The translations under genes and the position numbers were made by a program. The notes under the pieces were generated by a model that did no database searches, had not been told where the DNA came from, and saw only the letters and a program-made list of their open reading frames with translations. Shown piece after piece: positions 2,163 to 4,789 of a DNA stretch of 4,789 nucleotides. The stretch lies in IMG/VR virus record IMGVR_UViG_2585427785_000003. One strand, 5' to 3'. The stretch is from a virus. Taxonomy: Duplodnaviria > Heunggongvirae > Uroviricota > Caudoviricetes. Position 1 is the stretch's first letter, and each line of letters opens with the position of its first letter.

Positions 2163-2168
2163 GGTGTT

Positions 2169-2313
2169 CTGGTTTGTTACAAATTTATCTGAAGCAGTCA
2201 TTGTTATAATTTTATTATTTGTACCTCTTGAGATTTCCTTGTTGGTTTTTCTCTCTGATATTTTTTTTCGGACCATTCTGCCCAAGGGCTAATTTCTTCA
2301 AAAGGTAATAATT
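2169..2313 (+). promoter_or_regulatory. cspA-type long 5' UTR with cold-box-like start (GGTTTGTTACAAATT...) and the conserved AAGG Shine-Dalgarno context
   Basis: The UTR begins ...GGTTTGTTACAAATTTATCTGAAGCAGTC, which aligns with the recalled cspA leader start ACGGTTTGACGTACAGACCATTAAAGCAGTG. The sequence immediately before the ATG, AAAAGGTAATAATTATG, resembles the cspA AAAGGTAATACACTATG. Confidence 0.45.
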
Positions 2314-2526
2314 ATGTCTAACAAAATGACTGGTTTAGTGAAATGGTTTAACCCTGAAAAAGGTTTTGGTTTCATCACGCCGAAAGATGGCAGCAAAGAT
2401 GTGTTTGTCCATTTCTCAGCAATTCAGAGCAACGATTTCAAAACATTAACTGAGAATCAGGAAGTTGAATTTGGTATTGAGAACGGACCTAAAGGTCCTG
2501 CCGCTGTTCATGTAGTGGCGCTTTGA
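2314..2526 (+). CDS. cspI: CspA-family cold-shock protein (CspI-like), 70 aa
   Basis: The ORF translation [70 protein letters not shown] contains the RNP1-like KGFGFI and RNP2-like VFVHF motifs of the cold-shock domain. It matches the prophage-borne CspI rather than CspA/B/G as I recall them. It has a strong SD (AAGG) and a long structured leader. Confidence 0.9.
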
Positions 2527-2536
2527 GGTAGACAAT

Positions 2537-2725
2537 ATTACAAACCATATTCACTTTAGATGCCCGTGTTGTCATGGTTCCCAGTATAGAACATCATCTT
2601 TTGATGTTTCTGACATGAATCCTTTCGGGGCAAAATGTATCTTTTGTAAATCAATGATGATTACATTTGATAATATTTCACAATACTTAAATGCCAGCCG
2701 TCTGTCGTTGGATTTAAAAAAGTGA
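2537..2725 (+). CDS. Candidate small Cys-rich (zinc-ribbon-like) protein; start codon uncertain (no in-frame ATG/GTG/TTG upstream of the first Cys pair; possible ATT start at 2537 with GAGG SD, or ATG at 2615 giving a 36-aa product)
   Basis: The frame is open from 2516 to the stop at 2723-2725 and reads ...ITNHIHFRCPCCHGSQYRTSSFDVSDMNPFGAKCIFCKSMMITFDNISQYLNASRLSLDLKK. The two Cys clusters (CPCC and CIFC) are about 25 residues apart. The ORF ends 5 nt before a strong intrinsic terminator. A GAGG sits 8 nt upstream of the ATT at 2537. A K-12 Qin prophage gene of this position (ynfN) is recalled from memory only; its sequence is not recalled. Confidence 0.3.
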   Translation: MTNHIHFRCPCCHGSQYRTSSFDVSDMNPFGAKCIFCKSMMITFDNISQYLNASRLSLDLKK

Positions 2726-2730
2726 AAATG

Positions 2731-2756
2731 AAGGCTCCTTCGGGAGCTTTTTTGCT
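2731..2756 (+). terminator. Rho-independent terminator: 8-bp stem (2731-2738 / 2743-2750) with UUCG tetraloop followed by a T-run
   Basis: AAGGCTCC-TTCG-GGAGCTTT followed by TTTGC, giving a GC-rich stem, a stable UUCG tetraloop and a run of 6 or more T. It lies directly after the small ORF and the cspI transcription unit. Confidence 0.7.
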
Positions 2757-2797
2757 TGGTGTCTATTCGATGGATACTCACATACTACGGTAACATC

Positions 2798-3028
2798 ATG
2801 AAAAAAATCATAGTTTTTTTTAACTCTGAACCAGCAGTGGTAGTGCCAGCGATGACTGGAGTTAACACCATCATGCGTGAATATCCAAATGGCGAAAAAA
2901 CACACCTTACTGTAATGGCCGCAGGGTTTCCATCTCTGACCGGAGATCATAAAGTCATTTATGTAGCCGCGGATCGACATGTTACTTCAGAAGAAATTCT
3001 GGAAGCAGCAATAAGGCTCTTGAGTTGA
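2798..3028 (+). CDS. Hypothetical 76-aa protein, YmcE-like (partner gene found upstream of gnsA/gnsB-type genes); alternative starts TTG 2756 / GTG 2759
   Basis: The ORF-track frame from the ATG at 2798 reads MKKIIVFFNSEPAVVVPAMTGVNTIMREYPNGEKTHLTVMAAGFPSLTGDHKVIYVAADRHVTSEEILEAAIRLLS. It lies immediately upstream of a gnsB-like gene, as ymcE does for gnsA in K-12 (recalled synteny and length, not sequence-verified). No good SD precedes the ATG, and the longer TTG/GTG-initiated version would overlap the upstream terminator. Confidence 0.45.
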   Translation: MKKIIVFFNSEPAVVVPAMTGVNTIMREYPNGEKTHLTVMAAGFPSLTGDHKVIYVAADRHVTSEEILEAAIRLLS

Positions 3029-4394: not shown

Positions 4395-4600
4395 CGGGTC
4401 CTTTCCGGTGATCCGACAGGTTACGGGGCGGCGACCTCGCGGGTTTTCGCTATTTATGAAAATTTTCCGGTTTAAGGTGTTTCCGTTCTTCTTCGTCGTA
4501 ACTTAATGTTTTTATTTAAAATACCCCCTGAAAAGAAAGGAAACGACAGGTGCTGAAAGCGGGCTTTTTGGCCTTTGTCGTTTCCTTTCTCTGTTTTTGT
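4395..4600. other. Lambda-type cohesive end site (cos): cosQ region about 4400-4424, cosN 12-nt overhang sequence GGGCGGCGACCT at 4425-4436, and cosB with terminase-binding R-sites R3 (4479-4490), R2 (4534-4549, inverted) and R1 (4576-4590)
   Basis: 4401-4436 reads TTTCCGGTGATCCGACAGGTTACG followed by GGGCGGCGACCT, which is the lambda right end joined to the lambda left cohesive end as I recall them. Downstream there are three copies of the CGTTTCC(G/T)TTCT R-element, one inverted, and the nu1 ATG is exactly 191 nt after the first cosN base, as in lambda. Confidence 0.85.
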
Positions 4601-4614
4601 CCGTGGAATGAACA

Positions 4615-4789
4615 ATGGAAGTCAACAAAAAGCAGCTGGCTGACATTTTCGGTGCGAGTATCCGTACCATTCAGAACTGGCAGGAACAGGGAATGCCCGT
4701 TCTGCGAGGCGGTGGCAAGGGTAATGAGGTGCTTTATGATTCTGCCGCCGTCATAAAATGGTATGCCGAAAGGGATGCTGAAATTGAGA
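4615..4789 (+). CDS. nu1: Terminase small subunit Nu1 (DNA-packaging protein), N-terminal 58 codons; continues beyond the window
   Basis: The translation MEVNKKQLADIFGASIRTIQNWQEQGMPVLRGGGKGNEVLYDSAAVIKWYAERDAEIE matches the lambda Nu1 N-terminus (winged-helix DNA-binding domain). It is absent from the ORF track because there is no stop within the window; the overlapping track ORF 4550-4756 is in another frame. Confidence 0.9.
   Translation, partial: MEVNKKQLADIFGASIRTIQNWQEQGMPVLRGGGKGNEVLYDSAAVIKWYAERDAEIE

Follow-up and report, generated by a model that had tools for sequence, protein, structure and literature searches.

The cysteine-rich reading frame that follows cspI is the already annotated gene ynfQ (b4724) of the Qin prophage and not a new gene. 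It lies in a stretch of 4,789 nucleotides (the window) deposited as IMG/VR virus record IMGVR_UViG_2585427785_000003, which represents part of a lambdoid (Qin-type) prophage of E. coli. Positions 2537–2725 of the window are identical at 189/189 nucleotides to ynfQ of K-12 MG1655 (NC_000913.3 1638256–1638444, complement). Comparative evidence indicates that ynfQ is a real protein-coding gene of this Qin/lambdoid prophage, with the chromosomal ymcF as its paralog. The reading that we favor, in which the frame is ynfQ, belongs to the YmcF-like family, starts at ATT, is probably co-transcribed with and translationally coupled to cspI, and would yield a zinc-ribbon-like product, is very likely to be correct as a whole. 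What goes beyond the existing record is the pattern that relates the start codon to csp coupling; ynfQ and ymcF themselves are already annotated and reported as ATT-start cold-shock microproteins. The features of the window that bear on this reading are as follows.

1 to about 840, minus strand: IS3-family element (annotation of the window)
Between the IS3-family element and cspI: rrrQ lysozyme gene and rzpQ
2168–2313, plus strand: 5′ untranslated leader of cspI (5′ part of the Rfam cspA thermoregulator match)
2314–2526, plus strand: cspI coding sequence, a 70-amino-acid cold-shock domain protein, stop codon TGA at 2524–2526 (ORF list)
2525–2528, plus strand: ynfQ Shine-Dalgarno GAGG, read from the sequence and overlapping the cspI stop (TGAGG)
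2537–2539, plus strand: ynfQ ATT initiation codon (first base of the RefSeq and K-12 coding sequence; the Pfam model begins there)
2537–2725, plus strand: ynfQ coding sequence, 62 amino acids, YmcF-like family, stop codon TGA at 2723–2725
2561–2572, plus strand: first Cys knuckle, C9-P10-C11-C12
2636–2647, plus strand: second Cys knuckle, C34-I35-F36-C37
2728–2793, plus strand: ynfR, an annotated 21-amino-acid small ORF, b4749 (RefSeq and K-12 annotation)
2731–2755, plus strand: intrinsic-terminator-like hairpin with an 8-bp stem and a UUCG loop, then a T-run
3′ of ynfR: ynfN and gnsB
Minus strand: ydfO and ynfO

Identity of the frame and of its relatives

The ynfQ coding sequence of two RefSeq genomes maps onto 2537–2725 of the window, and the annotated start is therefore the ATT. 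The coding sequence immediately before it, 2314–2526, carries the RefSeq name cspI (WP_000066495.1/b1552). YnfQ matches the Pfam family PF23641, “YmcF-like,” at 109.9 bits against a cut-off of 27 (E = 6.9e-32), with residues 1–62 aligned to positions 1–62 of the model. Together with codon-level purifying selection across genera, this match places the signal far beyond chance. The only NCBIfam match of YnfQ, to ECs_2282 (NF047912, a putative zinc-binding CxxC family), scores 17.8 bits against a cut-off of 37; membership of that family was rejected, the score being well under the cut-off.

A sequence-only reading of this region had described a frame open from 2516 with CPCC and CIFC motifs about 22 residues apart. 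The frame is bounded as described, with TAG at 2513–2515 closing it upstream and TGA at 2723–2725 ending it, and both motifs are present (…FRCPCCHGSQ…CIFCK…), separated by 21 residues. The proposal of a small zinc-binding-type protein with a non-canonical start at ATT 2537 agrees with the RefSeq and MG1655 annotation and with the comparative data. The reported overlap with the end of cspI is true of the open frame, but not of the coding sequence, which begins 10 nt downstream of the cspI stop.

At a coverage of ≥80%, region 2250–2850 is found by megablast in 2132/5426 complete E. coli genomes, and the annotated order in these matches is cspI, ynfQ (“cold shock small protein YmcF”), ynfR, ynfN. 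K-12 YnfQ (b4724, YP_009518790.1; RefSeq WP_071524604.1, “cold shock small protein YmcF”) is identical in nucleotides, protein, and ATT start, and in the K-12 Qin prophage it has the same neighbors as in the window, cspI-ynfQ-ynfR-ynfN-gnsB. The window itself is not MG1655, from which it differs by the IS3-family element upstream of rrrQ and by T8 instead of T7 in ynfN. In a 2017 paper in J Proteome Res, D'Lima et al. reportedly used comparative proteomics to detect YmcF and YnfQ as microproteins induced by cold shock. The ATT starts of both are said to have been identified in that work by molecular genetics (mutagenesis). A later article cites D'Lima et al. 2017 for AUU starts in bacteria (PMC10191623).

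The name ynfQ is also in use for another ORF. In Table 1 of VanOrsdel et al. 2018 (PMC6001520), it denotes a 37-amino-acid ORF that lies between ydfJ and ydfK, has the same sequence as YnaM, and is not the 62-amino-acid b4724. That entry, being a different ORF, was rejected as evidence on b4724, and only the YnfR result of the same study is relevant here.

YmcF, the chromosomal paralog encoded 3′ of cspG (PF23641), shares with YnfQ a length of 62 amino acids, the ATT start, and the four conserved cysteines. The likeness extends to the surroundings of the gene, since in ymcF, too, the Shine-Dalgarno overlaps the csp stop, the gap is 10 nt, a terminator hairpin directly follows the stop codon of the gene, and a gnsA/gnsB-type gene lies further downstream. 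The two proteins are about 63–66% identical, and their C-terminal 17 residues diverge. The ymcF locus (cspG-ymcF-ymcE-gnsA) is present in 5394/5426 E. coli genomes, compared with the 2132 that carry the ynfQ region. The ynfQ version also occurs in phage genome records, among them Tritos, PhiR42_1, 2H10, and mEp460. In Tritos, the one phage record examined, the gene has the lysis genes on one side and gnsB on the other, as it does in the window; this linear record ends before any terminase gene.

Another small Qin-prophage protein, YnfU (Weaver et al. 2019, bioRxiv 10.1101/511675), likewise has two CPxC-type knuckles. It differs from YnfQ in having a canonical ATG start, in lying on the opposite strand, and in having no adjoining csp gene, and homology between the two was rejected (hhalign probability 1.3%).

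Selection on the protein and its predicted fold

A protein search returned 131 homologous clusters, all with PF23641, from Escherichia, Citrobacter, Salmonella, Klebsiella, Raoultella, Kosakonia, Yokenella, Leclercia, Atlantibacter, Kluyvera, Dickeya, and other genera. An exhaustive profile search of 1.84 billion representatives yielded no distant families. Its 42 matches (clusters at 50% identity) were short YmcF-like proteins or fragments, with the exception of two low-complexity long proteins. As far as these searches reach, the YmcF-like family is narrow, occurs almost only in Enterobacteriaceae-type genomes, and is without detectable distant relatives.

For the DNA comparison we used 80 genomic loci out of 277 confirmed, and calculated dN/dS and entropy over the first 45 codons (73 distinct sequences). 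The median dN/dS is 0.066 in the ynfQ frame versus about 2.1 in the other two frames. Entropy at codon positions 1, 2, and 3 is 0.35, 0.23, and 1.20, respectively, a three-base periodicity. These alignments show that the protein is under purifying selection from residue 1 onwards.

The sequence-only reading had kept open both a degraded gene and a non-coding 3′ UTR element, and both are rejected because of the low dN/dS (∼0.066) and the codon-position entropy pattern. A decaying gene with a lost start, sitting in a defective prophage, would be in keeping with the lack of a canonical start, with the cryptic nature of Qin, and with the IS3-family element near the window copy. However, ATT is the majority state, found at 60/80 loci over many genera and including the core-genome paralog ymcF, and phage genome records contain the gene as well (e.g., Tritos, PhiR42_1, and 2H10); given in addition the dN/dS of 0.066, a pseudogene is very improbable. 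The view of the region as non-coding, either a 3′ UTR of cspI or an RNA element, with an open frame that would be incidental, draws on the Rfam cspA alignment, which reaches 2553, 27 nt beyond the cspI stop, and on the terminator that follows. Against it stand the periodicity of the codon positions, the difference in dN/dS between the ynfQ frame and the other two, and the existence of a protein family with invariant residues, and we regard this explanation as scarcely credible. The alignments instead show ynfQ to be protein-coding.

The residues C9, P10, C12, Q16, R18, S20, N28, G31, F36, C37, K38, and M41 are invariant in alignments, and C9, P10, and C12 are so in a set of 45 diverse sequences. 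C34 is at least 90% conserved in protein alignments and is Cys in 80/80 genomic loci. Conservation of the cysteines had been proposed as a check on the frame: the four ligand cysteines are invariant in the 80 loci, and every one of their codons switches synonymously between TGC and TGT. C11 is replaced in 3/80 loci and in most distant family members. Because C11 varies in the more distant members, the putative metal ligands are C9, C12, C34, and C37. The last ∼17 residues of YmcF-like proteins are variable.

AlphaFold predicted the structure poorly from 31 close homologs (pLDDT 57.8). A more diverse alignment of 45 sequences gave an AlphaFold (AF2) model with an overall mean pLDDT of 77.5, in which residues 11–40 are at pLDDT >90. 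This model has short strands at 17–19 and 32–34 and a C-terminal helix at 44–57, the latter at low confidence. Fold searches with the AF2 model returned zinc ribbons and rubredoxin knuckles as top matches, which are weak and not significant. The TFIIE-alpha zinc finger, the TFIIB N-terminal ribbon, and ribosomal eL43 resemble the prediction in having two CxxC knuckles ∼21 residues apart on short β-hairpins, again as a weak match. A sequence-profile search of the PDB gave only chance-level CxxC matches, for example to UvrA and Rieske proteins. Judged from the model, zinc-ribbon-like is a reasonable, not proven, fold class for YnfQ. A 2026 review models YnfQ with a rubredoxin topology and a metal site (PMC13348028).

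The ATT start and the upstream csp gene

The GAGG at 2525–2528 and the in-frame ATT at 2537, 8 nt downstream of it, are both present where the sequence-only reading had placed them. Across the 80 loci, the residue-1 codon is ATT in 60, ATC in 4, and ATG in 16, and AGG stands 7–8 nt 5′ of the start codon in 80/80. Those with ATG at this same codon are found in Klebsiella, Raoultella, and others, which answers a question that had been left to homologs. A second in-frame ATT, at 2549, lies 20 nt from the Shine-Dalgarno and is a Leu codon in the paralog ymcF; by its spacing, it is too far from the Shine-Dalgarno to be the start.

Initiation at the first canonical codon, ATG 2615, would give a 36-residue product with the second Cys pair only. 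As the first ATG/GTG/TTG in the frame, this codon defines the mechanically listed ORF. It had been taken for the only in-frame ATG, which is incorrect, since codons 40 and 41 (2654 and 2657) are also ATG and 2615 merely comes first; that it lies 3′ of the first Cys pair and has no Shine-Dalgarno ahead of it was correctly noted. Residue 27 is Met in the window allele only, its counterpart in homologs being K, R, S, Q, G, or N. The 26 codons 5′ of ATG 2615 show the strongest conservation in the family and are under purifying selection, and the Pfam model and all curated annotations begin at residue 1. A start at ATG 2615 is thus effectively refuted by conservation, and we give it almost no chance of being correct.

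The start at ATT 2537 can be set beside what lies upstream of it. An intact cspG/cspI-type gene is found directly upstream in 50/80 loci, in 49 of these at a gap of 9–10 nt. With two partial copies included, csp sequence lies directly upstream in 52 loci, and all 52 start with ATT or ATC. In 51 of the 52, the csp stop (TAA/TGA) precedes the start by 9–10 nt and overlaps the Shine-Dalgarno, the two together reading T(A/G)AGG; the gap between the cspI stop and the ynfQ ATT in the window is 10 nt. None of the 16 ATG-start loci has an intact csp immediately upstream. These loci are L029, L032, L033, L035, L037, L040, L042, L046, L047, L050, L051, L061, L065, and L082 (Klebsiella/Raoultella), L081, and L012, and they correspond essentially to the Klebsiella/Raoultella clade, with Silvania and a single fusion in Citrobacter sedlakii in addition. 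In the six Klebsiella/Raoultella upstream sequences that we inspected, only a remnant of the csp 3′ end is left. A further 12 loci (Pseudescherichia, Atlantibacter, and others) keep ATT without csp upstream.

This pattern suggests that the near-cognate start is linked to translational coupling with csp, in a correlation that rests on few independent evolutionary events. The stronger proposition, that the AUU/AUC start is a conserved means of setting expression, linked to the csp cistron upstream, and not an annotation oddity, we advance tentatively and at somewhat less than even confidence. Were it true, YnfQ would be made mainly by ribosomes terminating on a massively translated cold-shock mRNA, which would set YnfQ at a low ratio to CspI and confine its synthesis to the cold, and AUG would have taken the place of AUU only once the csp-derived ribosome supply had disappeared. 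A possible dependence of the AUU on coupling to csp translation, as suggested by the start-codon/synteny pattern, is of modest interest.

The classic AUU-initiated genes of E. coli are infC, which encodes IF3, and pcnB, where AUU with an ordinary Shine-Dalgarno keeps translation low; IF3 discriminates against start codons of the AUU type. The AUU start of infC is said to have been described by Butler et al. in 1987, and that of pcnB by Binns and Masters in 2002. ynfQ resembles these genes in combining AUU with an ordinary Shine-Dalgarno, but no autoregulatory logic is known for ynfQ. The position of the ynfQ AUU 10 nt past the stop of a very highly translated cistron suggests coupling rather than IF3 feedback. 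Because its start is ATT, ynfQ is missed by standard ORF callers; a Shine-Dalgarno, a near-cognate codon, and a Cys motif together make a usable signature for such genes from sequence alone.

We also considered that a +1 frameshift close to the 3′ end of cspI might yield a CspI-YnfQ fusion. In its favor, the frame of ynfQ lies +1 to that of cspI and has no stop from 2516 on, some genera keep it open for 29 to 94 codons within csp, and in Citrobacter sedlakii one locus carries a true fusion ORF of csp and ymcF. The open stretch upstream, however, is 7 codons in the window and 3 to 94 elsewhere, with no pattern, and a slippery motif is not evident. A dedicated Shine-Dalgarno at fixed spacing in 80/80 loci and stand-alone, ATG-started genes where csp is absent likewise speak against frameshifting, which we hold to be very unlikely.

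At the Citrobacter sedlakii locus (L012, 1258–1686), a deletion at the csp 3′ end joins the csp and ymcF frames (…VEFSVDQGPRGPHFKVTVMTPHIHFRCPCC…). The homolog in this fusion has ATG at residue 1.

Probable transcription with cspI and neighboring elements

The Rfam cspA thermoregulator RF01766 matches 2168–2553 on the plus strand with 112.8 bits (gathering score 78; E = 3.4e-29) over the full model, 1–428. We therefore place a cold-sensing leader in front of cspI, which probably makes the entire cspI-ynfQ mRNA cold-inducible. The match spans the cspI leader and coding sequence and runs 27 nt beyond the cspI stop, into the first ynfQ codons.

As the sequence-only reading had it, a strong UUCG-loop terminator begins 5 nt past the ynfQ stop. 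The hairpin, AAGGCUCC-UUCG-GGAGCUUU at 2731–2750, runs into the T-run and has a folding energy of −14.9 kcal/mol (z = −2.1 versus shuffles). In 47/73 distinct homologous contexts, a hairpin of ≤ −7 kcal/mol precedes a T-run just after the stop, and the stem sequences differ. A promoter scan of 2516–2756 gave nothing convincing, its sole plus-strand site being at 2569–2597. The two sites found in the region, compared with 6.3 expected from shuffles, are no more than chance, and the scan thus lends no support to an independent ynfQ promoter.

In published transcriptomes, ynfQ moves with cspI and ymcF with cspG (PMC11228462, PMC11728337, PMC13058169), and ynfQ is listed as “Qin prophage, cold shock induced,” co-regulated with cspI and ynfN (PMC11228462). 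The co-transcription with cspI proposed earlier is consistent with this published co-change, with the cspA thermoregulator match, and with the position of the terminator after the ynfQ stop. YnfR-SPA was detected and is strongly cold-shock induced (VanOrsdel et al. 2018, PMC6001520). Because the downstream ynfR and ynfN are co-induced, the terminator after ynfQ is evidently leaky and must let an appreciable share of transcripts through, at least in the cold. ynfR (2728–2793, plus strand) starts 3 nt after the ynfQ stop, and its reading frame crosses the terminator hairpin and the T-run.

In the mechanism that we propose, cspI and ynfQ would be carried on one bicistronic mRNA made from the cold-inducible cspI promoter, with the thermosensing leader at its 5′ end. 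Most cspI-ynfQ transcripts would end at the hairpin after ynfQ, and some would pass through. Ribosomes would initiate at AUU 2537 via the Shine-Dalgarno that overlaps the cspI stop codon. Because of this overlap, and in line with the start-codon correlation, translation of YnfQ is probably coupled to that of cspI, either because terminating ribosomes re-initiate or because the mRNA is unfolded locally. AUU, as a weak start codon, would hold YnfQ far below CspI levels. The predicted product is a zinc-ribbon-like core of ∼45 residues with C9, C12, C34, and C37 as ligands, followed by a variable C-terminal helix or tail. Its function is a matter of speculation; most plausibly, YnfQ has its role in the cold and binds either a nucleic acid or some part of the machinery for translation or transcription.

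Several further features of the window were recorded. The IS3-family insertion (minus strand, 1 to ∼840) contains an ALIL frameshifting pseudoknot at 393–509 (RF01497, 116 bits). The element lies directly upstream of rrrQ, where the K-12 arrangement has essD/ydfR. Because it replaces essD/ydfR, the prophage lysis cassette is disrupted in the window copy.

Near the 5′ end of ynfN, the T-run at 2813–2820 (plus strand) is T8 in the window and T7 in the MG1655 reference, which reflects either a polymorphism in homopolymer length or a difference in sequencing. A DH5alpha record is exactly identical to the window over 2250–2850. In RefSeq, YnfN is annotated with 76 amino acids in DH5alpha and strain 300709, compared with a 51-amino-acid C-terminal part only in MG1655. 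Toward the end of the window, ∼4425–4640 (plus strand) holds a lambda-type cos region (GGGCGGCGACCTCGCGGG) and, after it, the start of nohA, which begins at 4615 and encodes a Nu1-like small terminase subunit (MEVNKKQLADIFG...).
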